A DNA stretch of 64,000 nt from Euglena gracilis (lineage: Eukaryota), in assembly GCA_039621445.1 (NCBI GenBank), contig CP154954.1:3229715-3293714 (forward strand). The letters run 5' to 3'. Shown here piece by piece: positions 1 through 56,092 of the stretch. Position 1 is the stretch's first letter, and each line of letters opens with the position of its first letter. The notes below the pieces were generated by a model. It had not been told where the DNA came from. It did no database searches and was given only the letters and a program-made list of their open reading frames with translations. Position numbers and translations under genes: made by a program.

Positions 1-31
<31 letters not shown>

Positions 32-4507: not shown

Positions 4508-4717
4508 AGACAGACAAACCGACAGACTGACAGACAGACCGACAGACCGACCGACGGACAGACAGACCGACAGACAGACCGACAGACCGACCGACGGACA
4601 GACAGACCGACAGACAGACCGACAGACCGACAGACCGACAGACCGACAGACCGACCGACAGACCGACCGACCGACGGACAGACAGACCGACCGACAGACC
4701 GACCGACGGACAGACAA
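4508..4717 (+). repeat. Compound (GACA/GACC/GACG)n microsatellite (duplicate at 31506-31736)
   Basis: Direct reading. Confidence 0.95.
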
Positions 4718-4761
4718 ACAACAGCAGGGGTGCAGAGAACAGCAAGGGCGGACCTGCGGGG

Positions 4762-10400: not shown

Positions 10401-10434
10401 GAGGGCATCCCCCCTTGGCTGCCCTATTCTGGAC

Positions 10435-10617
10435 CAGGCTGTTTTTTGTGCTAGGGCACTTTTGGCCGTGTGCCCTACCCCCCCCCCCCCCCGGGGGGTC
10501 GGATTGGGAGTGCCTTGGAGTGCCTGCCCAGGCAGGCACCCCCCCCCCCGGGGTGCCTGCCCAGGCAGGCACCCCCCCCCCGGGGTGGGGGTCGGCACCC
10601 GACTAAAATACAGCCTG
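10435..10617. mobile_element. CAG...CTG-ended MITE with perfect 8-bp TSD (duplicate of 37459-37635)
   Basis: TSD TTCTGGAC at 10427-10434 and 10618-10625. Confidence 0.85.
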
Positions 10618-10740
10618 TTCTGGACCCCCCCCGATTTCTGACCCCATGCAACTTATTGCATATGTGCAAGATATCTGGTACGGGGTACACCGACCAACCA
10701 CAGTACCGCACGAGGAAAAGAGGCAGGTCGCACCACCGGC

Positions 10741-10753
10741 NNNNNNNNNNNNN
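10741..10753. other. Assembly gap (13 N)
   Basis: Run of n characters. Confidence 1.
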
Positions 10754-34700: not shown

Positions 34701-37700
34701 TCCAAAATGTTTGCCACCCCGGGGGGGGGGGGGGCTCCAGCTTCAGAGGCTGGAAAACTTGGGCTGGCTTTAAAAGGCTGCTGGTTAACCCCCTGCCCCT
34801 CCCCCTTCAGAACACGGGGTAGAACCACGTGCCCAGAAATCAAAAATACAAAAATTCCCCCAAAACTGCAAAACTTTACCATTTGCAAAATGGGGAGGGG
34901 GTTCTGGGTGCTGGCTGGGCAGACTTCTCCAGGGACGGTCAATTTCCTTGGAAAATTCACTTGGACTTTGGCTTATTGACACCCTGTTCCAAGCAGAAGC
35001 CAAAAAAAAATCGCCGTGGAAAAACACAAAAATAACACACAAAAAACAAAATTTGCCTAATTCAAAAAACGTAACAAGCCACAAAAAGTGTTTCCCCCGT
35101 CTGAACAAATCCTCATCACAATCCTGCACCGACCCAAGCATGCATACAATGTACATTGCATTGCCAATGTCTGACTGAAAAAAACTGCACTACAGACCAC
35201 AACCCCTTCCATATGAACATCCACGTTGCTGTGATATGTCTGGGGTCAGGGCATGACATATCAATGCACTCAAACTTCAGACCTGGGCATATATGATTTT
35301 TTGGCCCAATTTGTGAAGCAGGAACAAACCTGCCCATTCCCCTTATTACCCTGTGGGTTTTGGGGTCACGTTTGCTTCGTGGAGGCAGGGTCGGCAACCA
35401 CCCACCCACCCACCCGCCAGGCGCCAGGGGTGATTCTGGGAGTCAGTTTGGTCCGATATTTTCCGATCCCATTGTGTAGACAAAAGAGGAAACCCCCATT
35501 CTGGGGACTCGTCCCCCCCCCCCCGGGTCACTAACCATCAACAACCCCGATGTTGTTTGGGAGAATGAAACACAGCGTTTTTGCCGAGCTGCCCAATGGA
35601 TAGCTCCCAGCCACACGAGACGGTATTCAACTCAACTTGTTCGGCTGCACACAGAGGTGGTACCTTGGCGGCTGTGAACTGCAACTTGACCTTCTTGTCC
35701 TCCGCGGTCTCGGACTCACTTGCCTTCTCTTGGAACTCCTGTGCCACCTGTTGACCAGGGTCACTGACCTCACATGTGACATACACAATGCAGACTCATT
35801 CACCCAATCACCCACTCACATTCTCGCATGGCGCACTTGCATGGCACTCGATGCTGCACTACACATGCCACATGATGCTTCACATGACACACTCCACATC
35901 TCGCATAACACATTGCATCAGACGTCTCATACGACATACACAGGGTTTTGTGCCAATTGATCAGACATTGGCATCCAGCAAGAAATCTAAGAAATATCTC
36001 ACCCAAAACAACGCTTATCAACGGAGGCCCACATATGTCCAGGGGCACCTTGGTGAGGTCCAGCTTCTTCAGGTTCTCCTCGAAGTTGAATTCCTCGGCG
36101 TACTGCTTCTTGGCCGCCCCGGAGTCATCCACCTTGAAGTTGCGGCCGGTGTGCTGGTCGGCATTCGAACGAACACTGAGAGGGCGGCAAGGGAGGGAGG
36201 TGTTTGCGTGTTTGAGCAGCAGCATGAGAATGGATACTTAGAAGTAGTAATTAGATGGGGGACAAAGCCGTCATAGCACAGAAGGGCGAAGAAATGATAC
36301 ACACATGTCGATAGGCAGGGTATTAAATTATGTCTGGTTTTGAACGTTGCATTCACTTGCTCGACACTGCAAGCCACACAGCTTCAGCTTAAATGTGTGA
36401 ATGTGCTTTTTTACTCGTTGAAACAAACATCGTTCATTCCGGCCGTTTCACTTCCTTCGCAGGTCATGCTTAAGAGGTAAATGAGGACTCGGCGAATTTG
36501 ACCCCAAAATGCAGCCTCCCCGGCGCACACCTCTCGCTGCGGGGCTTCTTGCCCTCGGGGCGCCGCTCCGGGCGGCCCTCCTTCTGGTCCTTCTTCGCGG
36601 GGCGGCGGTCGTCCTTGCCCCGCTGGCGGTCGCCCTTGGCCGGCTGGCGGTCCCCCTTCCCGGTTCAGCAGCAGGGCGCAGTGGACCCTCCTCAAGAAAA
36701 CACGGCCACGGGTTTGTAGGTGTTGTCCTCAAGCTAGCGTCCCTTCTCATTTGCCGTTCAAACACGCAACAGGGGGGGGGAATTGATATCGGAGGCTTTC
36801 GGAAAAATTGCGGAAAAATTGCGGGAAAATTGCGGAAAATTGCGGAAAATTGCGGAAATTGCGGAAAAATTGCGGATATCAATTCCCCCCCCTTGCACGC
36901 AAGCACCCATGCAGCTTCAGCTTAAACCTGTGAACGTGCCTTTTTAATCGTGGAAACAAATGTGTTCGTTCCGGTTGGGACGATTCACTTCCTTTGCAAG
37001 TCATGTTTTATACATAAATGAGGACTCGGCAACGAAATTTGACCTCGAAGTGCAGCCCGCTGACCACCCCTGGCTGGCCTCACCTCCCAGCAGGAATACG
37101 GGAATGTGCCGTTGGGGCATGCGACAACGACACACTGTGCCACGATCACTGCCCTTGAAGAAAACGGAAGGTGCTGTCCCAAAATGTGCTGTTGACACAT
37201 TGCGTTCGGGGGCAGGTACAAGACGCGCTTCAACAGAATTTTTACCAAAAATTGCCCTGCCTAATCTGCATGGTGTTCACAGGCCCCCTGCTGCCCCTCC
37301 CGAGGAAGCGACCACTTCCAAACTGTCTACTGAACTCTGCGCGGCGGTCGTCCTTCCCACCGCCGCGGCGGTCGTCCTTGCCGCTGCCCCGACGATCATC
37401 CCGACGGTCGTCCCGGCCGGCCTTGAGGGCATCCCCCCTTGGCTGCCCTATTCTGGACCAGGCTGTTTTTTGTGCTAGGGCACTTTTGGCCGTGTGCCCT
37501 ACCCCCCCCCCCCGGGGGCGTCGGATAGTGCCTTGGAGTGCCTGCCCAGGCAGGCACCCCCCTCCCCGGGTGCCTGCCCCGGCAGGCCCCCCCCCCCCCG
37601 GGGTGGGGGTCGGCACCCGACTAAAATACAGCCTGTTCTGGACCCCCCCCGATTTCTGACCCCATGCAACTTATTGCATATGTGCAAGATATCTGGTACG

Positions 37701-40700
37701 GGGTACACCGACCAACCACAGTACCGCACGAGGAAAAGAGGCAGGTCGCACCACCGGCCACCAAATCAACGCATGGCATCCCATTGGGATTCAGTTCTCA
37801 TAAACCCCCCTCAAAAACAAGACCCGGGTCTTATTTTTGGGTCCGTTGCTGGAAGCCTCTAGGGGAGGTCTTATTTGGGGGGGGGGGGTTGCTTTATCGA
37901 CATGGGACCGAAAAAAAAAACCATTTTTCAGGTTACAAAGAACACAAATATGTTTCTTCGGCGCTTTGCGCCATGTGTAAATTGGTGTAAATTGACATTT
38001 ACCATGTTTTTTTGCACTTCAAAAATCTGAAATTTTTTGAAATTTCATCATTTCTGTGTATGAAATTGTGATTTTTTGTAACTTTTCGGGAAAAATTTTC
38101 ACCGTCCCCGGCGCTTCGCGCCGTCAGGGGGGTCTTATTTATGGGGGGTCTTATTTTTGGATTTTTGCTTGATCAGCCCAGGGGGGTCTTATTTTTGGGG
38201 GGGTCTTATTTTGGGGGGGGGGGGTTAGTCAAAACACAAAGTCTTGAGTTTCACAACCGAAATCCGACAAACTCCCATTTGACACGTTAGATGCTCACTA
38301 TGGAATGCCCTTGGTGGTCCGGGGGATACAAAAAAAATAAAAACAATACAAATAAAAATGTAATAAAAAATTGTAAAATAATAATAATACTCGCATGGCG
38401 GGGTGTCCCACAGGAGGAGATGGGCGCCGCCGCGCGGGGGCTCCCAGTCACGGTCGCGGCGGTCGGGACCACCATACGACCCGCGGTCGTTGTAGCGCGC
38501 GCCGCCGTACGACCCGCGGTCGTTGTAGCCGCCGCGGGGCTGCCAGCCGCGGTCCTGGTAGTCCCGGCCGCCGCCGTAGCGCTGGTCCCTGCGCGGCGAC
38601 AGCGGCGTGGCCACCGCGCCATAGTCAGTCAGGCAGGAATCAACCCCCCCCCCCCCCGAATAGTGGTCCCTGCCCCGCTACCGTTAGTAGCTCCGGGGCT
38701 GAATTTGACCAACCGCAGGGGGGAATGGGGTCTCCGAGTGCCCTGGAGTGCCTGGGCAGGCGATGCCTCCCTGGCTGTGGGAGCATGGCGTGGCATAAAA
38801 AAGGGCCCTCATCCGGACTTTTGGTGCCGGAGTAAGCTCTCGCTTTCGTGCCTTTGGTACTTTTGGTCGTGTGCCCTGCCCCTGGGTGGGGGTTGGATCC
38901 AGACACACCCCCATGGTTGGGGTCAGGCCCACCTTCCAACCCTGTACAGCCCCCCTGGGGATATTGACTCAAATGCCGATCAGTAGCTCCCCCCCCTCCC
39001 CTGTGCAGAGGACAAACTTGACTAAAGCTCGTGCATGCACCTGATAGAAGCCCCACCCCGGAGAACTTGACCAACGCGCATGGCAGTAGCCCAATCAGGT
39101 GGCCGTTCCCGCCGGCAATCATCGAGGAACAGGACCCGCACCAGACACACCGATCGTCCCGCCCGCCGTAGCGGGCCCCGCGGTCCCGGTCCTCGCGGCG
39201 GTCGTCCCAGCGGTTGTCGGGGCGGTCGCGGCGGTCGTAGCCGTAGCGGTCCTGGTCGTAGCCGTAGCGATCCCGGGGGGGCCCGCGGGGGGCCGGCCGG
39301 CCAAGGTACTCGTCCCGAGGGGGGCCGCGGGAGGCGAACTGCGCGGAAAGGCGCCGCGGTGCAGGCGTGCAGCCATTCATGGGAAATCTGGTACTGCTTT
39401 GGGCTTTTGGCAATGCTTTGCTATCATTCCAGGTTGGTTCGACCCCCCGGGGGGGGGGGGCATGGTACTGGCCAGGGAATCGACCGCTGACCCGGGCAAA
39501 GCCGCACAACTGCACAACGCGCACCGTGATGGGTGGCCCCTGCCAGCCGCTGCTCGGGGCGCTGGGGGCGGAGGGCGCCTGCCAGGCGTTGAGGATGGCC
39601 GGGTCCGGCGGCTGCGCCGTCTGCTTCTGCACCGCGTCGAACACCGTCAGGTCCTGCAGGCCCGAGCCAACTCAGGGTGAACCCCCCAAAACGAACATTC
39701 CCCCCTTCGATGTTCAGCAAAAATGCAAAACCAGACACCCCCCAAAACAAGAACCCCTCGGGATTTTCGGGGAAAACCCAAAAATATTACCCTCCCCCCC
39801 TGTAAAACTGTGAAAATGCCCCCCAAATAGGTGATTTTTGACATTTTTCATTTTGCTCATTTTTGCATCCATTAAATTGGCATTTCTTGCGACACTTTTT
39901 ACTCGTTGCCAAAAAATCGCTCTTTTCAAACAGATTTTTGTACCCTCCCGCAGGAAGACTGAAGACTTTGCAGTCGAATAATTCAGCGAAAATCCAAAAA
40001 GAAAACCTTGAAGTTTCAGCAGTGGACCCAAAGAGTAAGGGCCTAATTGGGCTAGCTACTGCCCACTCGTGGCACAGGGTGGATGGCCCAACAGGGGATG
40101 ACACCCCCCCGCGGGCTGACCTGTTGGGCCATCCACCCTGTGCCACGAGTGGGCAGTAGCTGCCACTGGGGAATTCACAGCCAAAGGAAAAAGAAGGCAC
40201 CAAAAATAACACGCCTTTTTCTGTGTCGATGGTTTACTTTTTGCTGTTTAAAAAAAAAGTTCCAACCCGTGATTTTTGCACTTTTGAGGCGATTACTTCA
40301 TACACTTGCAAAAACGCAATTGCCCAGTCAAAGAAAACATGACCAAATTCACAAAAAAGAGCAATGAAAAATTTTAATTAAAGAATGAAAAAATTTGGGC
40401 TGGTGTTGTTTCACAGCAATAAAAAGTGGAGAGTAACAAAAAAACACAAAATTTTCCAGAGCCAAACTACCGGGGGGGGGGAAATTGAAGCTAGATAAAA
40501 TTAGACCCGACAAAATTGGAAGCCGAAAAAATTGGTGCCAAACCTGAAAACTGCCCGGAAAAAATTGGCAGGTTTTGTTTGCAAGATGACTGGAAAAAAG
40601 GTGATTTTGAAAATTTTGAGGCAGGATTTTCAAAAAAGGTCCGGAAAAATTTGGCAGGATTTCTGTACGCCAATTTTTCCCAATCAATTTTTTCAGCCTC

Positions 40701-43333
40701 CAATTCCCCCCCGGTAAAACGTATAGAAATGCACCTCCACACCCCCCACTCACCCAATGATATTGTTCAGTGAGTTATGCTTATCCACAGTTGGGGGTTT
40801 TTATTCTGCAGTTGTCGGTAATTATTTGCAGGTAGCCGCAAATGCAAAAAATACCGGTATTGAGGGCAAAGCATCCAAAAAAAATGTTGAAGAACAAGGA
40901 ATAATAATAGATGTAATGGAAATAATATAACATTAAAAGAATAATAAGTATTGATGGAAACATATTGGGAAGGTTAGATTGAGAGAAATGCAACTTCTGA
41001 AAATGTCTGAACTTACCAAATACCCAGATAGAAAAAGGAATATGACCTCCATCCAACCCAGGTGAATGCTCCCTTGGTAAAAAAAACATGTCCACCATGC
41101 CAGACCGCAATGACCATGCCAGACCGCAATGACCAGCTGTTATCCACAGTTGTTTGTACCTGGAGGTTTCAGGCTAATCCGTCGTTATCCGTAATGATCC
41201 GTATCCTGATGTGCACAAATGCTTGGATTACCCCCCCCCTATGTCCAATGACCGGCAACCTCTGCCCTCTGACCGGGGGGGGGTGGTCGTTGGACATAGG
41301 GTAGTGACCAAAAAGGTGTCCTCTGACCGGGGGGGGGGGGTGGTCGTTGGACATGGGGTCGAAAGAAAGTTGGTGGGTACCCGGGTCCCTACCCACCCAA
41401 AAATGCAAAAAAATTCCCTTCCGGCGCTTTGCGCCGAAAATTTTGGGCAATTTTGACAAATTTTTGTCCAAAAAGTGACAAAAATGGCATTTTGGCCACA
41501 CGCCGGGACGAAAAATTTGGTCAAACCTCCGAAAAGGTGTCCTCTGACCGGGGGGGGGTCATTGGAAATAGGGGGGGGGTAACACCAACCAGCTGGCTGA
41601 AGCTGCCACCGGTGCTGGATGTCGTCTGGCATTGGGAAATGTAGGTCTGCTTGAGGAAATTGGCACTGCGACTTGTAGTTGTTAACTTCCCACCCCCAGC
41701 ACGGGGGAAAGGAGTACCTTGATGTCGGAGCCCCGGAAGATGATGAACTCGTACAGCTGGTCCGCTGGGGGGATCTGGGGCCCCTCCTTCTTGCGCCCTG
41801 TGTCAGAGACGAGTGCACACGGCCGTGTTTTTGGTCTTCATTTCTTAAAAACTCAAAAATTTTTCTTAAAAACTCAAACCGCAAACGTTTCTCCTTTTTG
41901 GGGTCCGTTTCTCGCAACAGCTGAGGCAACCAAAATGGACCTGAGCCTCCCAAAAATGGAGGGGTTCTTTTTGCTCGGTCGGCCCAAAGGAGAGCTTGGG
42001 TTCAGTGTCCTGCGAATGCGCCACAACTTTATTGCAACTGTTCACAATCCCGACCCATCGGGAAAATTCACGTAAACAACATTCCGGGTTTGTAATATGG
42101 AAACTTTTGGGGTCCCCGATGCAGCTGAACTACCCCCCCCCCCCTAGTCGTATGACCGGGTTCCTGCAACCTGTGACCGGGGGGGGTGGTCATAACACCC
42201 CCATAACCTGCAACCTGTGACCGGGGGGTGGTCATAGATGAGGGGGTGGTCGTAGAAGCGTGTGAAAAGTGTCCCAAAATGGCATTTTTTACCCCCCCCA
42301 AAATGCCCCATTTTTCAAAAATCCGGCGCTTCGCGCCGGCAGGGGGAACCTTATTTTGGGGGGCCCACTTCATGGCATTTTGCACGGAACGGCCAGTGGG
42401 TGGACGTCATATGGGGGTTAAATTTTTTTCGCAACCGGCAACCTGTGACCAGGGGGGGTGGTCATAACACCCCCATGACCTGCAACCTGTGACCGGGGGG
42501 TGGTCATAGATGAGGGGTGGTCGTACGACTAGGGGGGGGGGGGGTACCTCGGGAACAGCAAAATCGTCCGGTATTGGCCAAAAGAATTCAGGCTGTCAGG
42601 TGACTGTTTCCCGGGTGGGGAGGGTTAGCACCGAGTCCTCCTCTTGTACCTCAAATATGAGAAACTGCCAAGTAACATCCACCCCCCCCCAAAATCCCGG
42701 TGCGCCTTTCGATGAAATTTGACTCAAAAATAAAAGAGTTAAATCTTTATTTTCTGAGATTTTTTTGTGCTTGCATTGCAAAGAGGCTGGGTTCGGACAC
42801 TCTCTGGCGTCACCCCCCCCCCCTTTGTCCAATTACCGATTACCTCTGTCCTTCGAGCAGGGGGCGGTCGTTGGACAACGGGTTAAAAAAATTGGCGGGC
42901 ACCTGGGACCCTACCTCACAAAAAAGGTCAAATCTTTTTTTACGGAGTTTCGCGCCTTGGACAATTTCAACAAATTTTTGCCAAAAAGTGTCAAAAATGG
43001 CATTTTGGCCAATTTTTTAGCTGATTTTGATGGCAAAACATTTCGGCCCGGCGCTTTGTGCTGGGCCAAAAATTCGGACAAACCTCCGAAAAGGTGTCAT
43101 CCGACTGGGGGGGGGGGTTGGTCGTTGGACATAGGGGGGGTTACTTTGAGATCGGCACAGCGGACAGCATCGGAAACATTCGGGGTGGAACCTTCGGTGC
43201 CAAACATGCGGACGTTCCGCAGCGCGACGGTGTTCTCATCCGGGTTGATGCTGTAGAGGAAGCCCTCGTAGCGGATCTCGCTCTTGCTGATGAGGCTGAT
43301 GCGGCTGCCCTGGAGGCCTCCGATGCCGGCCAT
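31780..43333 (-). CDS. LSM14: Lsm14/Scd6 (RAP55/Trailer hitch family) mRNA decapping activator and translational repressor, 12 exons, about 462 aa
   Basis: Exons in minus-strand order: 43192-43333, 41718-41797, 39525-39653, 39151-39338, 38426-38588, 37336-37424, 36531-36659, 36049-36175, 35664-35747, 34064-34147, 32400-32474, 31780-31879. All junctions are phase-compatible. The translation shows an LSm14 domain ([21 protein letters not shown]...VRMFGTEGR...[23 protein letters not shown]), an RG/RD/YG-rich middle, an FDF-like box ([13 protein letters not shown]), an FFD box ([14 protein letters not shown]), a TFG box (QLDRETFG) and an RG/G-rich tail. Eight introns are GT-AG; introns 5, 6 and 11 are non-canonical, and the ends of 5 and 6 are uncertain by a few nt. 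One extra base at 31823-31825 shifts the last exon in this copy. Confidence 0.93.
31880..32399 (-). other. Euglenid-type nonconventional intron (Lsm14 intron 11); duplicate at 4861-5380
   Basis: Junctions TTC|AACCAGAC...GCCTGGCGTC|GGG: CAG at +4..+6, CTG at -8..-6, pyrimidine|purine at both junctions, no GT or AG. Removal joins the TFG exon in frame to an RG/YG-rich terminal exon. Confidence 0.8.
36660..37335 (-). other. Probable intermediate/nonconventional intron (Lsm14 intron 6); duplicate at ~9635-10311
   Basis: GA|GTTCAGTAG...CTGCTGAACCGG|G. GT start with CAG at +4..+6 and a 9-bp terminal stem (GTTCAGTAG/CTGCTGAAC); non-AG 3' end. An in-frame TGA just upstream of exon 7 forces the acceptor into this window. 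Confidence 0.55.
37459..37635. mobile_element. CAG...CTG-ended MITE with perfect 8-bp TSD, inside Lsm14 intron 5
   Basis: CAGGCTGTTTTT...AAAATACAGCCTG flanked on both sides by TTCTGGAC. Confidence 0.88.
37803..38226. mobile_element. AACCCC...GGGGTT-ended element in Lsm14 intron 5
   Basis: CCCCCCTCAAAAACAAGACCC at left, repeated GGGTCTTATTTTGGGG at right. Confidence 0.65.
41231..41579. mobile_element. Poly-C/poly-G-ended MITE family A, TA TSD
   Basis: TA|CCCCCCCCCTATGTCCAATGACC...GGTCATTGGAAATAGGGGGGGGG|TA; homologous copies at 42813-43140, 47801-51135 and 62235-62648. Confidence 0.88.
42133..42544. mobile_element. Poly-C/poly-G-ended MITE family C, TA TSD
   Basis: TA|CCCCCCCCCCCCTAGTCGTATGACC...GGTCGTACGACTAGGGGGG|TA; internal direct repeats of gcaacctgtgaccggggggtggtcata. 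Confidence 0.88.
42813..43140. mobile_element. MITE family A, diverged copy in Lsm14 intron 1
   Basis: Colinear with 41231-41579; ends GTCGTTGGACATAGGGGGGG. Confidence 0.8.
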
Positions 43334-43339
43334 GGCAAG

Positions 43340-43380
43340 ATCGAACAGGAACGCTGCGAGGAACGGGACGTCACTTGTTT
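43340..43380 (-). promoter_or_regulatory. Candidate spliced-leader trans-splice (or 5'UTR intron) acceptor upstream of the Lsm14 ATG
   Basis: Pyrimidine-rich tcccgttcctcgcAG ends at 43354, 20 nt upstream of the ATG at 43333. SL trans-splicing is established for Euglenozoa; use of this site is inference. Confidence 0.35.
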
Positions 43381-45468
43381 GGAAGAACGTGATGTGTGCA
43401 TAGTGTGATGTATGTGGGCCATGGTGTGATGTATGGGTCCAACACACGTCCAGGTGTAAACAGCAAAAAATACAATAACATCACCTTTGGTCTTTTGGAA
43501 ATGAACAAAAATTTTAGAAAAATGACGGGAAAAAAATTGCAAATGGTTTGGTTCGAAAAAGCCTGGTTTCAAATGCGAATATTTCTAACATGAAAAAATT
43601 TCCTGGCAGAACACAAAATTCCAGAAGAAAAGAACAAAGAGAAAAAAGAGAAGCACAAAATTGAGAAAATTTGCCCAAGAAACACAAAAAAAAGAGAGAA
43701 ACAGTGCTTGCGCCACCCCCCTATTTTTCGATACTGTGAAAAATCATCTACTGCACAATTTCAGCCGCCAAACAGAGCCACCTCTCCAACCACTTCCTCG
43801 CCATGGGGAATACCAGGCCCCCATCACCGGAGAATTTTCTTTAAAAAGAAGAATCTAAATGTAGCCCAAATTATGAGGGTGCTTGTTTGCACAGCAGCTG
43901 CCCCCCCCCAGTAAGAAAATGGTTTCGGACAGTTTCGAGTGCACGATAGGGGAGGAAGCCCCATACGGCCCGATTGGCGAATGCAGGCCTGCCAGCCTGC
44001 AGGTCTGGGGCGGGGGGGGGGGGGGGGCGAACTGCCCTGCTGCCACCCGAGAAACCCCCAAGTTTAGGCAAGAAGGTTCAAAATAATTTTGGAGGCACGG
44101 GACAGAAAAAATGAATCAGTCAGTTATTCGGCACATGGCCAAAATACCTGGTACGCAAACTGGTGGGTGCTGAGAGGAGTCAAGCCAGAAGTTTTTTCAG
44201 GGCGGCGGGGGTGCCCGCGCACCCACCTTCAAAGGGCAGGGGGTGCTCTGAGGGGGGTACCTACTTTGGGGTGCAAAATTTGGATTTTTTTCCGGCACTT
44301 TGGACCGAAAAAATAGAGGGATACCCAGCCTATGAGGCACAGGGTGATGACGACGGCGGTGGAGCCACCACACCACACCCCACGCCACCTCAACCTTCGA
44401 CCAAAGAAAAACCCACCGCAAAATAGGCTAGCCGGGCTAACAGCACCCCTCCCCCCCGGGGTGCCGCTGTGGCTGGTCTGGGCCAAAATCGGCGCTGGCT
44501 GCAGCAGCCCTGGGGTCTGCAAAACCTTAAACAGATGTTGGGCTGCGTACCGAGGTGGTAATTAGGTTTTTGATGGGGCTTGGCGTTGCTGCCTTGCAAG
44601 CCAGCTGGTATTAGATCAGCTGCTCCCAAGGAGGAGCCTTAGTGGACTGCCCAACATGACAGATCAGCCGGTTCGGGTCCAATGTGAGAGCTTCCGGGGG
44701 GGGGGGGGATGAGGAAAGTTCGAAATCCGCGTTAATGCCTAAAATCTCAGGGTTTTTTTTCAGAGATTGTTTGTTATTTAAAACCGGAACCTCCAAATTG
44801 TGCACAGGGACCGTGATTGGGCTCTGTGGTTCGGTTTCGGGGGTGGGAATTTCGACCCCTACATGGGATCATGCCCACCTGATGCCAGGGCGCTAATCTG
44901 GGGGTGCTTTATGGAATGGGTGGTTCAGCAGAAAATTGCCCACAAGCAATGGGGGGGGGAGGCGTCCCCTGCTCTTGGACTGGGAGGCTGGCACCCCCCC
45001 AATCTAGTGATTCGCCCTCTGCGGGTGTAAAAAGGAGGCCTGAGATCCGGGGAGAGAAATTTTGAGCATTTTTGTGCGAAAACAGTGTGAAAAGGAGGTT
45101 TCTTACGCTCTCACACTGCTGAATAGGGGTAAAAACCAACAAAAGCCGCATGCAGAACTTTGGCAATAACATCTGCCTTTGTCCCTGGACCTCTTCTGCC
45201 CTAACCGACGATGTCCACAAGGCTAGTTAGTAAACATTGGTAAGGAACAGTTTCCCATAATTTTTACAGAAGGTGGCTCCCTCCCGCATTAATGAGACAC
45301 ACAAAGCGCCGTGGCAGAATGGGTGGCAACGGGACAGCGGTCACGATTGGTTTGGCATGCAGGGTGAATGGATGGAGAGTGCAGGGCGGTGCTGTCGCAG
45401 AGCATGGGGTGCAGCTCAATGAGCGCCGCTCCGGGAATGGGGCGACGTGCTGGAAGAAATCTCACATA

Positions 45469-46438
45469 ACCCCCCCAAATAACACCCCCCGGTGTGTTTT
45501 TTGGGCACCCGAATGGGACCCCGGGGGGGGGTGTTATTTGGGGGGGTGTTATTTTTACATGGAAAACAGGAGGGGGTGTTAAACCCCCCCAAAAACACCC
45601 CCCCAAATAATACCCCCCCCTCTTGGGGTCTAACTTCGGCCGCCGAAATAATACCCCCCCCCCTCGGTCTCGGGCCGAAGGCCCCATTCAGGCTTCTTTT
45701 TAAGACCCTGGGGGGGGGAGGGGGGTCCCCCCCACCCACCCAGGGTGGCGCGGGACCCCCCCCGGGGGGGGGACCCCCCAAAATCGGGCCCGCTAAAGGC
45801 AATTTTCAAAAATTTTCGGCGCTTCGCGCCGAAAAGGTATACCCGGCGCCTCCGGCGCGGGACCCCCCCCACCGGGGGTCCGGCCCGGACACAACCCCTC
45901 CGGGGGGGGGGGGGGGGTCAGGTGTCTTAAAAAGAAGCCTGGCCCGGATTTTAACCTGAAAATGTAGGTAAAAATCACAATCTCTGACAACAAATTACGA
46001 AAAAAAAATCAATTTTTCTGGATCATCTGACCTCCAAAAAATGGTAAATTTCACAAGAAAGTGCAAAAAAAATGACCCCAAAGGGGGTTTTGGGTGCCAT
46101 TTTCGGTTTTACGGGACTTCGAAAAATTTCGAAAATTTTGGAAAAATAATACCCCCCCCCAAAATAATACCCCCCCTCGGGCCGGAACTTCGGGCGAAAA
46201 AATAAATACCCGGGGGGGAATTATTTGGGGGGGGGGTTATTTGGGCGCGCGAAATCGGCCCCCGAGGGGGGGGCGTTATTTGGGGGGAGTTATTTGGGGG
46301 GGTGTTATTTGGGGGAGTATTATTGGGGGGGGGGGTGTTATTTGGGGGTGTTATTTGGGGGGTGTTATTTGGGGGTGTTATTTGGGGGGCTGTCGTTTGG
46401 GGGGGGTGTTATTTGGGGGGGTGTTATTTGGGGGGGTT
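45469..46438. mobile_element. ACCCC...GGGGTT-ended element with (GGGGGTGTTATTT)n subterminal arrays
   Basis: CCCCCCAAATAACACCCC repeats at left, inverted GGGGTGTTATTTGGGG repeats at right, TA on both flanks. Similar architecture at 7190-7573, 37803-38226 and 61155-61568. Confidence 0.75.
45689..45941. mobile_element. CAG...CTG-ended MITE nested in the 45469-46438 element
   Basis: 18-bp TIR CAGGCTTCTTTTTAAGAC / GTCTTAAAAAGAAGCCTG; degenerate TSD GCCCCATT / GCCCGGATT. Confidence 0.8.
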
Positions 46439-47447
46439 TACTTGATTCTTGTGCTTGACCATCCACACCTCCCCCTTAGTTGCACTGAGGCTTCTTGTCT
46501 GTTTATGGCCGCGGTAACTTCGCTTCTGGACCAGTTTGTGTGGTGAGTGGACCCCTTGCACCAGTGCTCTTGTGTTGCTCCCCCAGCTGGTGAGCAACTC
46601 TGGTGTGATTCCAGCGCTGTGAGGACATACACGCACCTTGGGTGGTTGCCAGGGCGGTCCCTAAGCAAAAAAAAAATCCTGTCCCCATACACTTCAACCG
46701 AAAAATAAGGAAAAGGGGATTTTGGCCAGGGAAAATTTTGAAAATTATTTTGAAAAATGAACCCAAAATACACAATTTTTTTGATGGAAAACCACATTTT
46801 CCCCAAAAAAAACTCAAAATTTTAGAGTTGAAAATTGTTAGTTTTTAGGAGGGCGTTCAAAAAAATGCAGGTCAAAAAAAAGGGACCAAATTTTGGAACA
46901 TTCAAACTCTTGGAAATTTTTTGGATTTTCAATGGCTTTTTTTGCTTCAAAAAACTCTCAAACCCAAATTTTTGAGAAAATATTCAATTTTTGGAAGGTG
47001 TGAAAAAATGGGGTTTTGAGGGGTTTTTGGGGAGACCTCTCATATGGGTCCCAAAATGGGTCAAAAAAAAAGTTGGTGGCCGAAGGCGCCGGAAAAATTT
47101 TTCGGGTCCAATTTTTCGGGTTTCTGTGTATTGGGGGGGGGGGCGGTCCTTAAGGGGCGGTCCTTAACTAAAAAAAAATCCCGTCCCTTATGGCCCGCCC
47201 TGGTGGTTGGTGTGGTTGGTGGATTTATACCCTTGCACCTCCCACCCTCCCACCCCCACGTGGCAATAGAAATGACAGGGGTGCAACAAACTACGCACAA
47301 AAAGGTGGTGATGGACAGGCTCCTTTTTCACAATCCCGAAGGGGGGGCAGGTGCCTTGTTCTCTGGGAGATCTGTATGGGTCCTAGCTCTTCTGTTCCCT
47401 AGAAAATGACCTTTTTCTGGCTCTCAGTGCCTTTTCTGCCTGGGGGT

Positions 47448-47719
47448 CAGGGGTTTTTTTAAGACCGGGGGGAGGGGGGGGTCCCCCCACCCACCCACCC
47501 CCTGGGGGGGCCCCCCTGGGGGGGGGTCCGGGGGACCCACAAAAAATGGCCGAAAAATCGCAAAAAGTGCTAAAAATAGATTTTTTCGGCGCCTGCGGCG
47601 CCGAAAACTATATCCCACCCCCCTCCGGGGGGGACCCCCCCGGGGGGGAGGGGGTCCGGCGGACCCACCCACCCTACCCCCCCCTCCCCCCCGGGGGTCC
47701 AAACTTAAAAAAATCCCTG
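47448..47719. mobile_element. CAG...CTG-ended MITE with 8-bp TSD
   Basis: CAGGGGTTTTTTTAAG...CTTAAAAAAATCCCTG; flanks CTGGGGGT / CTGGGGGGT (one-base homopolymer difference). Confidence 0.82.
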
Positions 47720-48279
47720 CTGGGGGGTGTAACATGGCACTAATTCGAAAAATGCCTTCCCCTCCTCTGCCTGACCACGACACCCTGTCCCTCGACATTA
47801 CCCTCCCCTCTCCCCTATGTCCAACGACCGGTAACCTCTGTCCTCTGACCGGGGGGGGGGGGGGGCGGTCGTTCTTAGGCGGCCTAACTCGCACTTAGCT
47901 TTGAAAGTGACTGTAAATTTGCGCCAACGCGCAAATCCCAAAAAAAGTTTGGTTTTCGACCACCGTGGCCTGAGACTCGAGACAGTCTGAAAATAGTGTC
48001 TCCCTGCACCCGAGGGCCTGGGGACGAAACCAACGACTAGGAACTCCACGGTCCACGGGCACAGCGCTCCCAGGTCCCAGTGTGCATGAACACAAGGCGG
48101 CGGGTGATGAAACGAGGGTACTCCTCTTACTCATTTGCGCTTTGGCGCAAATTTTTGAAATTAAAAAAAAACCATTTGCGCTTTGGCGCAAATTTTTGAC
48201 TTTTTTGTAATTAAACACGTGGGTGACCACTGCCGCACTTGAACAATGATAACAACTTTTGAGTCAAGATGTGTTTCCA

Positions 48280-48676
48280 TTTGCGCCAAAGCGCAAGGGG
48301 TAGGCCCATGAAGGATGGAAATTTACGAGTTACCTTGCGCCAAAGCGCAAGTAGAAATACAATTTTTAAAATTGCAAAAGCAACATGGCTTGCGCCGAAG
48401 CGCAAATATAACTGTTTAAAACTTATCTCACAACGCAGGGAGAGAACGGCCCTGGTAGAGTAACAACACCAGAGGGGATGGAGCACAAAAATGTAGAACA
48501 GGGGGACGGAAGCCTACTCTCAGTCGCGTTGACTTAAAACTGGTCAACATTGCGCGTCGGCGCAAGAGCCACGTTGCTTTGACAATTTTAAAAGTGTATT
48601 TCTACTTGCGCTTTGGCGCAATACAACTCTTAAATTTCCATTCTTCATGAGCCTACCCATTGCGCTTTGGCGCAAC
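48280..48676. mobile_element. Older foldback element with ~130-bp inverted arms
   Basis: 48280-48410 is the imperfect reverse complement of 48550-48676, with three TTGCGCNNNNGCGCAA palindromes per arm. Confidence 0.7.
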
Positions 48677-49495
48677 AGCCATCAAGTTGTATTTTCCATT
48701 TTTATCACTGCGGGTGGAGAGAGCAGTCCTGGGAGCATCTCATCACCAGAGCGGACAGAGCTCAGATGGAGGGAAGCCTTGCCTGGGACAGGAAGCCAAC
48801 CACCTGGTCTGTGAAAACAACCACCAACTTCTTGATAGCCAGACGTGTCTTGTCCTATGCGTTGTAAACCCAACTTCCAGTGCCGGAGGTTCCTCCCACT
48901 TGCCTCGCAGTTAAGCGTGCCTGAGGGGCCCTTCTCTTTGGCCGACTTTTAAAAGTCGGAAAAATTCTGTTTGGAAAAGAACAGGTACCAGATAAACCCT
49001 GGGAATCACAGCCGAGGAAACAGTTTTAGGCGTCGAAAGGGTGTTTTAAAGAAGCTTGTCACCCCCCTTTCCTCGCCCAGGATTTGAAGCACAGAACTTT
49101 GGGGATGAGCGAATGGAATTGAGAAATTGAAAGCGCCCATCAACAACGGCGGAGAAGGGAAGACATGCTGACACGCCTTTTTTCGGTAATTTGCAACCCA
49201 CCAGACAGCCACATGCAACGAGGCAGATGGAGGCATTGTTCAGCAGAAAAAGCCTTTCTGTCAACGTCCCCAAAAACCCCACTTTGTGCACCGAGTGCAA
49301 GGTCACTGAGGCACCACAGCCTACCACCCACCATTCGTCTTATTGTAACAACCACTTCCTCCCCAGCACCTGAATAATTCAAAAGCACCAACCCAGCTTC
49401 TGGCACAGCAGCGCACAAACCCTCCTCACCATTCTCCCCTATCCCCCACCTTCTCACACAGCACGAATGCATTCAAATACATCTGCCATTTAAAA

Positions 49496-49965
49496 GGACA
49501 TTTGCGCTTAAGCGCAAATTTTTAGCTTGCGCTTAAGCGCAAATTAAAAATTTGCGCTTAAGCGCAAGCTAAAACAGAAGCCGCTGAGTTTGTGGGAGTC
49601 CCTCTGATGTGTTACGGTGTGTCGGGGGCCCCTCTCTGCATGGCCAGTGTACGGGCTTGGTGAGGAAATACATTTGCGCCGAAGCGCAAGGGACATGCCT
49701 ACATAATGCACTGCTTGTTCATCCACATTACACGTCAGCCGCGTGTTTGCACTTCTTAGTTTTTTGTATGATGGTTTGCGCTTCGGCGCAAGGTATTTCC
49801 TCACCAAGCCCGCACTCTGGCCATGCAGAGAGGGGCCCGACACACCGTAACACATCAGAGGGACTCCCACAAACTCAGCGGCTTCTGTTTTAGCTTGCGC
49901 TTAAGCGCAAATTTTTAATTTGCGCTTAAGTGCAAGCTAAAAATTTGCGCTTAAGCGCAAATGTC
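49496..49965. mobile_element. Foldback element with ~190-bp inverted arms
   Basis: GGACATTTGCGCTTAAGCGCAAA...TTTGCGCTTAAGCGCAAATGTCC; arms are near-perfect reverse complements around a short spacer. Confidence 0.88.
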
Positions 49966-52900
49966 CATAACCATTGCCTTCTGTGCCCGGCAGTGTGGGG
50001 CCTGGCGTTGCTCACCAGACGTTGGGAGAGGTCCCTAGGCTTGCCCTCAGTCCCCCCAACCCCCCCCACCAGGGTGGTTCCCGCTGTACCGCTCCTCACG
50101 CTTCAAGCACCCAGGGATCACAACTCTGTGGCATGCCGTTTTTTCCAACTTTTCACAACGTGCATGTAGAGTCCACCCTCTGGATGCCTCAGCAGCCAAA
50201 CTCTTCACGGACATATCACAGAGCCAAAAAAACAGCAAAAAGGGCCAATTGTCACCTGGACTGTGTGACACCATCCGGGGAACACAGCCGAGGCTTCAAA
50301 AACGAGGGACTCACAACGGGGGTTTCGGCCCATTTTTGGGAAAATTCACGTGTCCCGGCGGTCAAACCCAGGGTTTTGGACCTTTTTCAAAATGGTGCAC
50401 AGGCCGAAAAACATCAAAATTGGGCCTGTTCCCCGGGTCCCAACATCGGAAAATGATGCACACGCCACCGTGGAGGGTCTCCGCGGAACCAGAGGGTCAA
50501 AAGGGTGGGTTCTACCGCCGGGTCTCAAAGAAATCGAAAATTTGCGCCAAAGCGCAAGCTAAAAATGAAAACCTTAAGTGCGAGTTAGGCCGCCTAAGTC
50601 GTTGGACATAGGGTAGTGACCAAAAAGGTGTCCTCTGACCGGGGGGGGGGGTCGTTGGACAAGGGGTCGGGAAAAAAAAGTTTGCCAAAAAACCCCCCAA
50701 ACAGTCAAACTTTTCCTTTCCGTTTCCAGCCCTCTCAACAAATATTTCATCAAATAGCACCCAAAACGTACCTTCACGCCGCGGGATTTCACAAAAAAAA
50801 AACAAAGATACCCAGTCGACAATCCCTGCATTCCATCAACCATCTTCACTCCATCTACAACCTAGCAAACACCCGAAAATGTCATGGCGTAATGTTGGGA
50901 GTGTGGTGAAGCCCCTTCAACAACCGCAAGCACTATCTCCCCGGTGGAGCGCTCGTAATGCACAAAACTCCCCAGAGGGAACATTTTAATGGACGATGGG
51001 CTGCTGGGTAGAGGACAAGGGCGGAAGAAAAGCCTTTCAGGGCTGGCAAACCTCCGGTTTTCACGCACCTACAAAAAAACCTCCGAAAAGGTGTCCTCTG
51101 ATCGGGGGGGGGGGTTGTCGTTGGACATAGGGGGGTAACTGAAAGGAGTTCTGATCGTGGATATAGACCATGGATACGACCAAACATCAGAAAATACAAA
51201 AAAAATTAAACCGTTAAAAATGCTAAACGGTAATAAATGCAGACGTAAAACTTGCAGCAGATTTCCCCTCCCACAATGGAGCACAACGGAAGTATACAAT
51301 GGAAATTGAGGAGTGGGACGTGTTCACCGCTCGACAGGAATTGCGAGGAGGTCAGGGCTGCAGTCAGCACTTTTGGCCTTTGCTGGTGCTGCACATTGTG
51401 AACACTGGCAGCCTCGTCTCTCATTGCGTACATGAAATGTTTGCTGAGGTTGAAGGTGATATGTTCCACAAGAGATTTCTTGGGCAGGAGAGCAGCCTGG
51501 CGCGTGTCTGGATCCACGTACTCCACATTTTGACATATCGGCCAACGTCCAGCGTCGAAGGTTCCCCTGATTTCGCAAATCAGCGTGCAGGAGGAACTCG
51601 CCTGTTTTGCAACATTTTAAAACCCCATTCTTTTCCATTTCTTGCCATTTTGGCCAAACTGCATCAGGGCAACCCAGCAAAGTCACCAATACTCCAGGCC
51701 AAGTGAGTAATACCCCTGCCCCCGACAGAGAGGGACCAAAGAGACACTGGGATCGCCAACGTGCATAATTTGTTGGTCCCTGACTTTGCCCAGTGTGCAT
51801 TTTCAAAGATTTTTGACAAATTGTCGGGCAGAACTCACGTCGAACTGCAACCGGGAGGGGGGTGCAAAACGCTGGATCCTGTTGGACCTTTCTGACGAAA
51901 AAACAATGCAAACGCTCCTGATGCCAGACCCAGCAGGTGCCTTGGAGCACCTTCCTTGTCAACAGGGTGACTCCTGACCGAGAAGGGGGCTGGGTGCTTG
52001 GGTGCTGGGAAAGCACTCGGTCAGACAAACACACACAAATACCCCGGGAGCAGGACGGTGGGGCTGGCCAAACTGGGGCCAGTCCCTGTACGAGGGGGCC
52101 GTGTGGCTTTGACAGAAGACAAACTCACCCATGTGCAAACGTAGGCTTGAACCTCCTCCTCCTCCTCTTGTCTGAGCACCGGAAAATATGGGTCAGAACT
52201 GGGGGGGGGGGTGCTTATTTTGCCAAAATATGGGTAAGAACCAGGGGGGTGGTGCTTAGACAAGGGGGAAAGCTTTGACTGCAAAAAAAATCCGGCGCTT
52301 CGCGCCGAAAAGGAAAAACTCCCCTTATTTTGGAGGTCCACTGTTGAACTCACACACATTTGGATGCAGAAATCAACAATACCTCACCAAATCAGGTGTC
52401 AGAAGTTGCAAAAATTTCGAAATTTTTGAGAAATTTCCCTTAAAAATGCACACAAAATAATCATCCCCGTGACGATGACCTTTAAAAAGATGGGTAAGAA
52501 TCGGGGGGGGGGGGGGCTTAGACAAGGGGGGGGGAGGTAGGCTTGTAGGCTTGAACCTCCTCCTCCTCTTGCCTCAGCACCGGAAAATATGGGTCAGAAC
52601 TGGGGGGATGCCTGTTTTGCCGAAATTTGGGGAAACCCCCCTCCCAACGTCACACCCCTGAGGGGCCAAAAGTGAAGCCTAAAAAAGTGCAAACCCCCCA
52701 AAGAGCTACTGAACCGCTTTCGGGCGGTGCCCAAATAAGTGTCGCATCCCTGAAAGTCTGAAACCATGGTCCAATAATTTGCGCAGTCCGTGGGCGGGGG
52801 TTGCCCGGGTCGTTGTGCAGTCCGGGGGGGGGGGGGGACAGGACAGGGGAAAAGAAAAGATTGGCCCTTCGCAGTCAGAAGGTTAAAAAAAAATACTTCA

Positions 52901-54094
52901 TTTTAGAAATGTGTCCAGGCATTAAGAAGCAAAAACTAACAATTTGCAACATCGAATATTTTGAGCCACGAGTCATAAAAATGCATGAGAAAAAATGCCT
53001 CCTGTGGGGAAGAACCAGGACAGTGGCGATCATACAGTTCCCCTAGTAGGCTGGGTTACAACGTTTTTGTTGTACCCACAAACAAGAACAAACAATCAAG
53101 AACAACAGCCTAAAGCTCGATGTGAAACAAATTGTTCGATTTCGCCCAAAAGATCCACGCCGTCAGACAGAATTGTATATTTGACTGGAACCACATAAGG
53201 CTTTTTTTTTGTTTCCTCGTTTTTCTTTCTCAGTGTCACTCAAGAAGCACACCTCCCCAACAAGAAACTGTCATGACCCAAAACCTGCCAGGGGCCTTGG
53301 TGCTGGCATTCATACAACGTTTGTCGCATTGGCATCAAACTTCTGACCGAAAAGGCCCTACCACCCGAGAAGTGCAAACCAGGGTTCGCAATACCACCCA
53401 GGAAGTACCCACCCCCCAGCCACGGGCTTTGTCGGGTTGGTCAGCAGGAAGAACCCTGACAGTTTCCAGAGCGGGCACCTGACAGGTTCTCGGGGGTCGG
53501 ACATTAGCACAAATTCTCAATACATGTTCAAGTGCAAAACCAAAAGCATTTTCATCAGCACTCAGCAGGGCAGTCCTTAACGGAAAAAAAATTCCCGTCC
53601 CAGCACATTCAATGAAAAATTCATAAGAAATAATGGAAGAAAAAATGGCCATATTTTGGCGAAAATGGGTCGACTCTGAGAAAAAAGCTATTTCTGGCAT
53701 CCTTGGACCATCCCTTGGGCCAAATGGCGGTCCTGTAGGGGTGGTGCTAAAGGGAAAAGAAGACTTCCCATCCCTTTTGGACCGCCCTGGCACTCAGGAA
53801 GTTGTTGCATAACTGTTGGGACACCAGAGTTGGAAAAACGGAACAGGAAGAGAAAGGAGTCATGAAAAAAAACAAATTCAATGAAACAGAACAAAGGTTT
53901 GTCTCCGCAACAAATTTCTACCCTGTCAATATCCCGTTTCCAAAATGTCACCACACGCCTGGAAGCATTCAAAATTGGAAAAATTGCTAAATTGCAGAAC
54001 ACTCTGAACAAACAAGGCACCCTTTCGAAGAAATTGTCGGTGACCACGGCGGTCAACCGAGGATGCAAAGGTAAAACGCGTGCGTGCACAGTAG

Positions 54095-54242
54095 TGAGTG
54101 AGTGTGGAGTGTGGAGTGTGGAGTGAGTGGTGCGTGTGTACATGTGTGTCTGTGTGTATGTGTGTACGTGAGTGTGGGTGGGTGGGTAGGTGGGCAGGCA
54201 TGTTCATGCACACGTGCAAATAGTCCTGTTTGTGTGTGCGTG

Positions 54243-54283
<41 letters not shown>

Positions 54284-54312
54284 ACATGCGTATGTGTGTG
54301 TGTGTGTGTGTG
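54095..54312 (+). repeat. (TG)n-rich simple repeat
   Basis: Direct reading. Confidence 0.9.
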
Positions 54313-55104
54313 TCATTAACACAGTGAAAAGGCAGACCAGAGATCAGCCAGTGATATGCAACTTGTGGGGCCAAGATGACTCGCCGGGAACCTTAGCATG
54401 GGAAGGTTGACGGGATTAAGAGGAGATCTGCAAAGCATGATGGTTCAGTACGACAGGAGGTAATCAAAAATCCGGTTTGGGGCATTGGCATTTGAGGCGG
54501 TGTAACCGCCCAGTCTGACACGCAACAGATTGTTTGGCACTTCCTCCCGTCCAATGATAAAGACACAAATACATTGCGCTGCCAGAGGGCTGGCACAGGA
54601 AGGTTCGTGACCCGCGTGAGTCACCAGCAAGCACCCATAGCCTCAGCAACTTTTAGGTAGGCCCCGAACAGGCGGCAGAAAATGGATCCTTCAAAGAAAA
54701 AGTCCTCAAATGCGTTCCACTGGGACCCTGTTTTTCGGGTAAAAAGTTATTTCGAATTTGTCGACTTTTTGACCCAGAAATGATCCGAAATCCATGGGTT
54801 TCGGGACAAATCCATGGGTTTGGACAAAACACTCAGTTTCGGCTCAGAAACAATTTTTCCGGGTCCGGGAGGCCAAAAAACATCGTTTCAAGCAACTTAC
54901 CCTCATGTTATTTTATTTTAAATTGTTACCTCAAGAGGCAATAACTTGGGAAAACATCTACCGACGAGACGTCAGCATGGACAAACTGGTTTTATTTGAA
55001 TCAATTGTATTCATGGGATCTCAGGGGACGTCAACTTTCCAGCCTCAGACGACTGACCCTTGAGAAGAGCTGCGCAAAAGTAAAACGTGGAAACTGTATG
55101 GAGG

Positions 55105-55208
55105 TACAATACAATACAATACAATACAATACAATACAATACAATACAATACAATACAATACAATACAATACAATACAATACAATACAACACAATACAAT
55201 ACAATACA
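55105..55208 (+). repeat. (TACAA)n pentanucleotide microsatellite
   Basis: Direct reading. Confidence 0.98.
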
Positions 55209-56092
55209 GGCTTGGTGGCTCGGCCAACAATAGGAAATCAAGGGAGTGGATCAAAAAAAAATCGGTTCCATGGGAAGGCACATCTCAACGTTGCATGATC
55301 TCGGATGGACGTTTGTCCCCTAGGCTGAGGGCCTCTCGTTGGAGTCACCATAGATCAGAGGCACTTCACATGGGTGCTTGCCCACGGACGACGACTGCGC
55401 GACACGCTGGCGTATGGCGAGCACTTTGCCATGCGTGGCAGGAGGGAATGGGGCGATGCCAGCCGACATGCAGTGGTAGCGCGACGAGAGTGCTCGTGTG
55501 CAAGTGCATGGGTGACAAGTCCACGGATGGACATGGTTGCGGTTGGTATGCGTGTGGTTGCAGAAAAAGGGAGGGGATTGGTCGGCACTGACCGGCTCAG
55601 TGAGAAACCACAGGGATGCGTATAACTGCAGCTGATGCGGCCTGCAGCCTGCTGGCTTCTGTTTCCTTCTGGGCTGCAACGTGCACCATTCCCATCCGTC
55701 TCAATCGTGATGTGTGGGCTTTTAGAACTGGGTGTGCATCGCCGCCTTCAAATCAAAGCCAAGTCCCCTGGGGTTGATGATTGGCACACCAGAACATCCA
55801 AATGCTGATCGGCAAAAACGCACTCCGATGATCACCCAGAGGCGCAGAAAAGGCAAAATTTAGGCTTAAACTGCTTGGCCCAGGCACCCCAAAGTCCCAG
55901 GCATAATTTGAAAAAAACAACGGACAGAGAGCAGGGGGGTGGCCTTCCATCGAACGCTGAAAAAAACGTGCCTCTTGTTGTCCCTTGTCAAACATTGTTC
56001 TCCGGGCACAGGTTGCTCGGCCGAGTGCTATTGAGCAGAGACAGAATGAGAGAAGCCGAAAAAATTGGGGGGCTGAGGAAGGGGGTCTACAA

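Follow-up and report, generated by a model that had tools for sequence, protein, structure and literature searches.

Miniature CAG...CTG transposons with 8-bp target duplications in Euglena gracilis and their fit to the nonconventional splice code

The origin of the nonconventional introns of euglenids and the mechanism of their removal have been open questions since the 1990s. These introns are the subject of work by Milanowski et al. (2014 and 2016) and Nomura et al. (2025). The locus considered here, a stretch of 64,000 nucleotides from Euglena gracilis (assembly GCA_039621445.1, contig CP154954.1, positions 3,229,715 to 3,293,714 of the forward strand; called the window below, with position 1 as its first letter), raises the question of why such introns should be cut 3 nt before one end of a helix and 5 nt after the other. 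It carries MITEs (miniature inverted-repeat transposable elements) that begin with CAG, end with CTG and are flanked by 8-bp direct repeats, and a preliminary description of the sequence had suggested that, 3 and 5 adding up to 8, the splice code and the geometry of these transposons might be one and the same thing. The window gives concrete MITE families that fit the code base for base, and this match offers a reason for the 3+5 spacing.

Elements with CAG...CTG ends and their 8-bp duplications

Eight elements were recognized, none of them with an assigned strand; the first coordinates of each line include the duplication.

37451..37643: focal MITE, family A, element 37459-37635 (177 bp), flanks TTCTGGAC/TTCTGGAC, identity 8/8
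57463..57774: family A MITE 57471-57766, flanks GCCCCAGC/GCCCCAGT, 7/8
56389..56611: MITE 56397-56603, ends CAGGCTTTTTTTTT..., inverted repeat 12/12, flanks GTTCCCCG/GTTCTCCG, 7/8
47440..47728: family B MITE 47448-47719, ends CAGGGGTTTTTTTAAG..., flanks CTGGGGGT/CTGGGGGG, 7/8
45681..45949: family B MITE 45689-45941, inverted repeat 19/20, flanks degenerate, 5/8
46642..47210: family C MITE 46650-47202, ends CAGGGCGGTCC..., flanks GTGGTTGC/GTGGTTGG
53558..53797: family C MITE 53566-53789, perfect 8-bp duplication GCACTCAG, 8/8
58372..58610: MITE 58380-58602, ends CAGGGCTSTRYGGGAA, flanks GCTGGGCG/GCTGGGCA

Read directly, bases 37451-37643 consist of TTCTGGAC, then CAGGCTGTTTTTTG ... CTAAAATACAGCCTG, and then TTCTGGAC again, that is, an element of 72% GC with a terminal inverted repeat matching at 11 of 12 positions and a perfect 8-bp direct repeat around it. 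All eight elements (177-553 bp, terminal inverted repeats 9-12/12) start with CAGG and end with CCTG, and the fifth base divides them into equal halves, CAGGG in 4/8 and CAGGC in 4/8. According to alignment and self-BLAST, family A (37459, 57471) has termini CAGGCTGT... and a common right end, GGCACCCGACTAA, and 57471-57766 also has internal blocks in common with the focal element. Family B includes 45689, 47448 and the piece nested at 58425, with 56397 as a looser member; its ends open with CAGGCTT or CAGGGGT, after which come a T run and AAGACC, and poly-G/poly-C hairpins lie inside. The termini of family C (46650, 53566) are CAGGGCRGTCC, and 58380, with termini CAGGGCT, is the sole member of its group. 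These elements show that MITEs, as non-autonomous DNA transposons without recognizable coding capacity, are present in the window in four families or more, each insertion having duplicated an 8-bp target.

The elements at 37459, 57471, 47448 and 56397 had already been named in the preliminary description, and their 8-bp flanking repeats were read at 7/8 to 8/8; the right flank of 47448-47719, CTGGGGG(G)T, has one G extra, and both junctions of 56397-56603 are spanned by independent contigs of the DNA run. The elements 46650-47202, 53566-53789 and 58380-58602 were added by a scan of CAG...CTG pairs. Among the cases previously given as degenerate, 45689-45941 is as described (inverted repeat 19/20, flanks 5/8), whereas 2342-2562 (inverted repeat 6/12, flanks 5/8) and 9745-9871 (ends CAGGGG.../...CCCCTTG, the flanking CACGCAA being a repeat of 7 nt that is shifted by one base) proved weak. 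In the latter, as in its copy in the block 27059-37758, CAGGGGGGGGAATTGATATC-type inverted ends enclose a tandem array of AAATTGCGG-like 9-mers.

A further copy of the focal element had been counted as a second case:

10427..10625: copy of the focal MITE, element 10435-10617, strand unassigned, within the block 3-10740 that corresponds to 27059-37758

The two versions of this block are 98.6% identical over about 10.7-10.8 kb, up to a 13-N gap at 10741-10753. The block has the look of an allelic haplotype or an assembly duplicate placed in tandem rather than of a biological duplication, or at the most of a single segmental duplication; the heterozygosity of E. gracilis has been estimated at 2.2-2.6% (PMC6366073). 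Because it lies inside the block, the 10435-10617 copy is not an independent insertion: either a single insertion has been counted two times, or the copy is a duplicate of allelic or assembly origin. For the same reason, other features of the first 10.7 kb do not qualify as independent cases. The element is present in both versions of the sole paralogous block of the window (3-10740 and 27059-37758), and an empty site was not observed.

The identity of the 8-nt flanks was tested in 10741-64000, the non-duplicated part of the window, thus avoiding double counting. Flank identity of at least 7/8 was found in 7 of 261 CAG...CTG pairs with inverted-repeat matches of at least 9/12, and these are seven independent elements. 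When the inverted repeat was set at 10/12 or better, 5/43 pairs reached at least 7/8 flank identity at the exact register; at shifted registers such pairs numbered 0 at 14 of 15 registers and 2 at the remaining one. Over 200 mononucleotide shuffles, the mean was 0.01 and the maximum 1. The register control is the stronger argument, because the shuffles keep base composition alone. An unbiased scan for any inverted repeat with a flanking repeat was overwhelmed by AT-rich low-complexity DNA and palindromes, its reversed-sequence control giving the same 12 hits, and was not used statistically; the clean outermost hits with flanks of at least 7/8 all started with CAGG. The observation of CAG...CTG elements with 8-bp duplications is hereby confirmed and extended.

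Open reading frames (ORFs) overlapping the elements had no Pfam match. The summed word depth of the DNA run ranged from about 3,000 to 320,000 in the bins holding MITEs, against about 60-70 in single-copy bins, which suggests many copies, the figure not being a copy number.

Nested in 58380-58602 is a partial family B piece (about 58425-58563, or 58425-58571), flanked by the direct repeat CTCGACCC and having the left end CAGGGGTTTTTTTTAAAGACC and no CCTG right end; truncation of an insertion, or a later deletion, may account for it.

Register of the duplication, the splice code and the surrounding introns

The euglenid splice code was set by knock-in as 5'-N3CDG...CH'GN5-6/R, the slash marking the start of the downstream exon, which begins with a purine (Nomura et al. 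2025; PMC12501133). According to this paper, the 5' spacer is strictly 3 nt, a change of 1 bp abolishing splicing, and the 3' spacer works at 5 nt, with splicing reduced at +1 (6 nt being tolerated) and lost at +3. Fully synthetic 50-bp genomic inserts provided with nothing but CAG/CTG, 12 bp of complementarity, 3- and 5-nt spacers and an exon-start purine were precisely spliced, and splicing broke down on removal of the complementarity (PMC12501133). So, the 3/5 spacing on which the preliminary description relied is an experimentally defined rule. The elements with their flanks read N8-CAGG...CCTG-N8, which matches the N3-CAG...CTG-N5 cis code. In 15 of 16 minimum-energy RNA folds (eight elements, both strands, 8-nt flanks), the terminal C is predicted to pair with the terminal G, and this pair closes the CAG:CTG stem.

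An element transcribed together with both copies of its duplication would read N8-CAG-(stem)-CTG-N8, and under the 3/5 rule each of the identical 8-mers would be cut behind its base 5. Such cuts would remove the element plus exactly 8 nt, i.e., exactly one duplication, and would restore the pre-insertion mRNA in either orientation, so that the arithmetic put forward earlier is right; the condition would be a purine at base 6 of the duplication, with which the downstream exon would begin. The register argument is sound and, taken together with the published sufficiency experiment, allows one to deduce with some strength that an insertion in an exon would be removed scarlessly, given the purine at base 6. 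The earlier expectation that any insertion could be spliced in this way agrees with the geometry and with the synthetic inserts, but is narrowed by this condition. The asymmetric 3+5 spacing would be tied to the 8-bp duplication in one of two ways: either the cutting system would be tuned to the duplication, or only CAG...CTG families that duplicate 8 bp could settle in exons.

We lean slightly towards MITEs of this kind being a source of euglenid nonconventional introns, with the 3+5 spacing tied to the 8-bp duplication. A bolder proposal, to which we give a little less than an even chance, is that nonconventional splicing would be an RNA-level excision matched to one transposon class, recognizing the CAG...CTG helix and cutting after base 5 of the duplication. 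If so, exonic insertions would be erased scarlessly in either orientation because the excision is keyed to the transposon ends, and the 3/5 asymmetry, the shared pyrimidine/purine junctions, the abundant junction repeats and the capacity of a genome to hold 70% nonconventional introns would all be explained. [quoted passage not shown] Intron 4 of gapC, found in E. agilis ACOI 323 only, combines all nonconventional features with eight-nucleotide direct repeats at its junction, which exceed those of the other introns in that study (PMC4770533), and its presence in this strain alone marks it as recent.

Splicing around the elements was followed over 37440-57439 in two presumed RNA contig sets (X1, X4), the raw RNA-seq run X20 and the DNA run X15. 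The joints used are 15 listed of 1108, so an element-sized joint may lie among the others; 10 of the 15 are RNA-only. The introns concerned, all on the minus strand, are as follows.

37425-38425, minus strand: probable nonconventional intron, GCC/CATCTCC...GGGGATG/CCCTC, with a 9-bp stem from +4/-6, in an LSM14/Scd6-like coding region; the focal MITE 37459-37635 lies inside
45432..56860, minus strand: spliced transcript span with seven RNA-supported nonconventional introns, listed next
45432-51269, minus strand: first intron of this span; the 45689, 46650 and 47448 elements lie inside
51404-51995, minus strand: textbook nonconventional intron, ACC CAG...CTG CCAGT, RNA-only joint, single-copy DNA bin
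52086-54025, minus strand: intron; the 53566 element lies inside
54447-54555, minus strand: intron
54622-55382, minus strand: intron
55633-56026, minus strand: intron
56187-56860, minus strand: nonconventional intron; the 56397 element lies inside

The junction of 37425-38425 is probable rather than one of the listed joints: an RNA-contig loose end at 38426 matches 37395-37424, and the continuation is in frame and RD-rich.

A number of observations weigh against these MITEs as a source of introns. All six elements that could be placed (37459, 45689, 46650, 47448, 53566, 56397) lie inside larger introns, 57471 and 58380 being outside the stretch covered by RNA data, and no joint bounded by an element occurs among the 15 listed of 1108. 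Judged by these joints, the copies that could be placed are passengers in older, larger introns, not introns themselves. A MITE with its duplication resembles a euglenid nonconventional intron in offering 3 nt, CAG, a stem, CTG and 5 nt (PMC12501133), and differs from it in that, among the joints listed, no copy was seen excised as a unit. In favour of the link, five of the eight nonconventional introns of the window have a stem of 5 bp or more that begins precisely at +4/-6 (9, 5, 12, 5 and 6 bp, minus strand). The closing triplets are CAT/ATG, CAG/CTG, CAA/TTG, CGG/CCG and CTG/CAG; against the link, CAG/CTG is used by 1/8, the others having other triplets or no clear +4/-6 stem. The excess of 8-nt identity that the preliminary description had expected at such introns was not seen: when the virtual duplication was read in the 3/5 register (5 exon plus 3 intron bases versus 5 intron plus 3 exon bases), 20/64 positions matched, 2.5 per intron against 2.46 for mismatched pairs, in a test on eight old-looking introns that has little power. 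DNA depth is single-copy for the three introns occupying a depth bin (51404-51995, 54447-54555, 55633-56026), so that these do not count as recent members of a family. As read from the flanks, the duplication has a purine at base 6 in 4/7 cases on the plus strand and 4/7 on the minus strand, and removal of the element with one duplication restored a coding ORF convincingly in none of the seven cases tested. Finally, the eight-nucleotide repeat of gapC enters the comparison by its length, and its authors read it as a product of double-strand-break repair (PMC4770533).

Much of this would equally be seen if the match were a coincidence, an explanation that we consider rather unlikely. Ordinary high-copy MITEs would then sit in introns and intergenic DNA, and an unrelated enzyme would measure 3 and 5 nt from a helix closed by C...G, the CAG termini and the equality of the duplication with 3+5 having arisen by chance; termini starting with CA and 8-bp duplications are common among DNA transposons. 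The position of 6/6 placeable MITEs within larger introns, with none seen as its own intron among the joints listed, fits coincidence, as do the lack of excess 8-nt identity at eight real nonconventional introns, the 7/8 introns that are not CAG/CTG and the three introns in single-copy bins. MITE families are, moreover, usually young, in contrast with the splicing system, which is old. Its age follows from the presence of nonconventional introns also in diplonemids (PMC12621601). What chance accounts for poorly is the convergence of three features, namely the terminal CAG/CTG, the terminal stem and a duplication as long as the sum of the spacers, together with the splicing of synthetic inserts that have just those features (PMC12501133) and the 8-nt repeat at one documented recent intron gain (PMC4770533).

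Transposon superfamily and relation to known systems

The mobilizing transposase is, as a best guess at roughly even odds, hAT-like, a candidate assignment drawn from the ends and duplications of the elements. Pfam revealed no transposase domain in the 121 ORFs of at least 120 aa in 10741-64000, nor in the 10 largest ORFs; one of the 121 matched LSM14 plus SM-ATX, and one matched PT. The hAT terminal motif is YARNG, which CAGGG fits in 4/8 elements and which CAGGC, in the other 4/8, does not fit at the fifth base. The target consensus of Ac-type hAT elements is nTnnnnAn; in the small sample of seven duplications, T stands at position 2 in 4/7, A at position 7 in 2/7 and both in 1/7. hAT elements have 8-bp duplications and inverted repeats of 5-27 bp, with nnnTAnnn as the target consensus of the Buster group (PMC3517528), and TA at positions 4-5 was found in 0/7 duplications of the same small sample. 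Of the earlier assignment to hAT, the 8-bp duplications were borne out; the termini, half CAGGG and half CAGGC, speak both ways, and no domain in the 121 ORFs adds to it.

Mobilization by Merlin (IS1595-like) or another 8-bp-duplicating superfamily instead of hAT is unlikely, and would alter the label only, with the intron link unaffected. Two Merlin families with 8-bp duplications and a conserved DDE motif occur in the E. gracilis draft genome (PMC8101967), in the same genus; the 8-9-bp duplication of Merlin is found here too, and none of the ORFs scanned with Pfam has a hAT domain. However, Merlin inverted repeats have a conserved terminal 5'-GG-3' (PMC8101967), whereas the elements here have CAGG ends, 8/8 of them starting with CA, and Mar, a hAT MITE of Drosophila willistoni, starts with CAG(G/A)GG and makes 8-bp duplications (PMC3517528), 4/8 elements here being CAGGG. 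Mar is like these elements also in being non-coding, high in copy number and short in its termini (PMC3517528); the elements of the window differ from it in being very GC-rich inside, with poly-C/poly-G hairpins, not AT-rich, and in that half of them start with CAGGC. A first scan of metagenomes for the MITE-end motif gave 0 hits, and the single hit of a second scan was rejected as a chance match, since its contig has no MITE-like surroundings and an apparent coding stretch adjacent to the hit.

Repair of double-strand breaks with filler DNA, which would yield new introns and 8-nt repeats with MITEs uninvolved and which the gapC authors advanced by analogy with intron gains in Daphnia and from the strong break-rejoining of euglenids (PMC4770533), is very improbable, as it predicts neither a fixed repeat length nor CAG...CTG termini, and the 8-nt length recurs at seven inverted-repeat elements of repeat families, the signature of transposase-made duplications.

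An origin of nonconventional introns from CAG...CTG MITEs, as favoured here, would liken them to introners, in that non-autonomous DNA transposons become introns as splicing removes the element and one copy of its duplication. For the introners of Micromonas and Aureococcus, Huff, Zilberman and Roy are said to have described in 2016 the removal of the transposon together with one duplication copy by splicing. These introners are reportedly removed by the ordinary spliceosome, which uses a splice site that the duplication contributes, whereas here the cuts would be measured from the helix. The introners of Amoebophrya have inverted repeats of 8-20 nt, and their direct repeats, which overlap the exon/intron boundaries, are 3-5 nt long (PMC7789003), as against 8 nt here. 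The nonconventional machinery of euglenids is probably non-spliceosomal and releases circular introns (PMC11282704). Should the link be borne out, Euglena would join the lineages in which DNA transposons make introns on a genomic scale, and be the first in which excision is keyed to the transposon's own ends and not to spliceosomal signals.

The idea of a MITE origin is not new, as the preliminary description acknowledged: it was proposed in 2014, when no transposable element had yet been identified in euglenid genomes (PMC3935182), and it is restated in work on diplonemids (PMC12621601). A 2024 review draws "TSD-like" repeats and, in its available part, gives no euglenid duplication length and does not mention hAT (PMC11282704); the 2025 splice-code paper calls the origin unclear (PMC12501133). 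In the open full-text literature, outside which subscription papers and supplements lie, no paper was found that reports MITE families of euglenids with CAG...CTG termini and duplications of 8 bp, or that equates the spacer sum with the duplication length. The MITE-origin idea is therefore already published, and the 3+5=8 register argument was not found in that literature. The interpretation given in the preliminary description is partly supported.

Neighbouring gene, transcript and other repeats

Next to the focal element, the LSM14/Scd6-like gene was delimited as follows.

38426..43309, minus strand: LSM14/Scd6-like gene, with the Sm-domain exon at about 43178-43309 and RG/RD-rich exons at 39525-39652, 39150-39338 and 38426-38587
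38588-39149, minus strand: GT-AG intron, RNA-only joint
39339-39524, minus strand: GT-AG intron, RNA-only joint
39653-41716, minus strand: GT-AG intron, RNA-only joint

The ORF 43100-43480 matched Pfam LSM14 with E = 2.7e-17; since the match covers profile positions 4-46 of 75, an intron splits the Sm domain. One gene thus combines three GT-AG introns with one probable nonconventional intron.

The transcript at 45200-57000 is spliced identically in the two RNA contig sets, and a (CA)n-like run is found in its exon 54026-54446. When the spliced 45-57 kb transcript was translated, neither strand yielded a long ORF, so its assignment to the minus strand comes from intron geometry alone; it may be an untranslated region or a non-coding RNA. 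At 44007-44029, 45900 and 47868, 81-183 raw RNA reads per site stop in long poly-G loose ends, which are probably a sequencing artefact or the longer G runs of other copies at MITE poly-G/poly-C tracts.

A near-perfect palindrome of 470 bp at 49496-49966 (87% self-inverted over 480 nt) is built from GCGCTTAAGCGCAA and AAATTTTT motifs and may represent another foldback or MITE family lacking CAG ends; inverted repeats of the related GCGCAAATTT type occupy 47915-48195 and 48281-48675. Tandem arrays spaced at 8 and 12 nt occur among 4461-4854, 31459-31872, 23700-23940 and 25990-27090, with related sequence at about 60305-60470, and the same listed stretches include long low-complexity blocks, AT-rich and of the TATA/TGTA kind, to which many spurious inverted-repeat matches are due. 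Dispersed repeats with no obvious CAG...CTG ends are 14739-14895 versus 57267-57423 (95%), 41236-41576 versus 62250-62625 (82%) and 52322-52532 versus 59105-59316 (83%); the copy at 57267-57423 lies just upstream of the 57471 MITE, in a DNA bin of very high depth.

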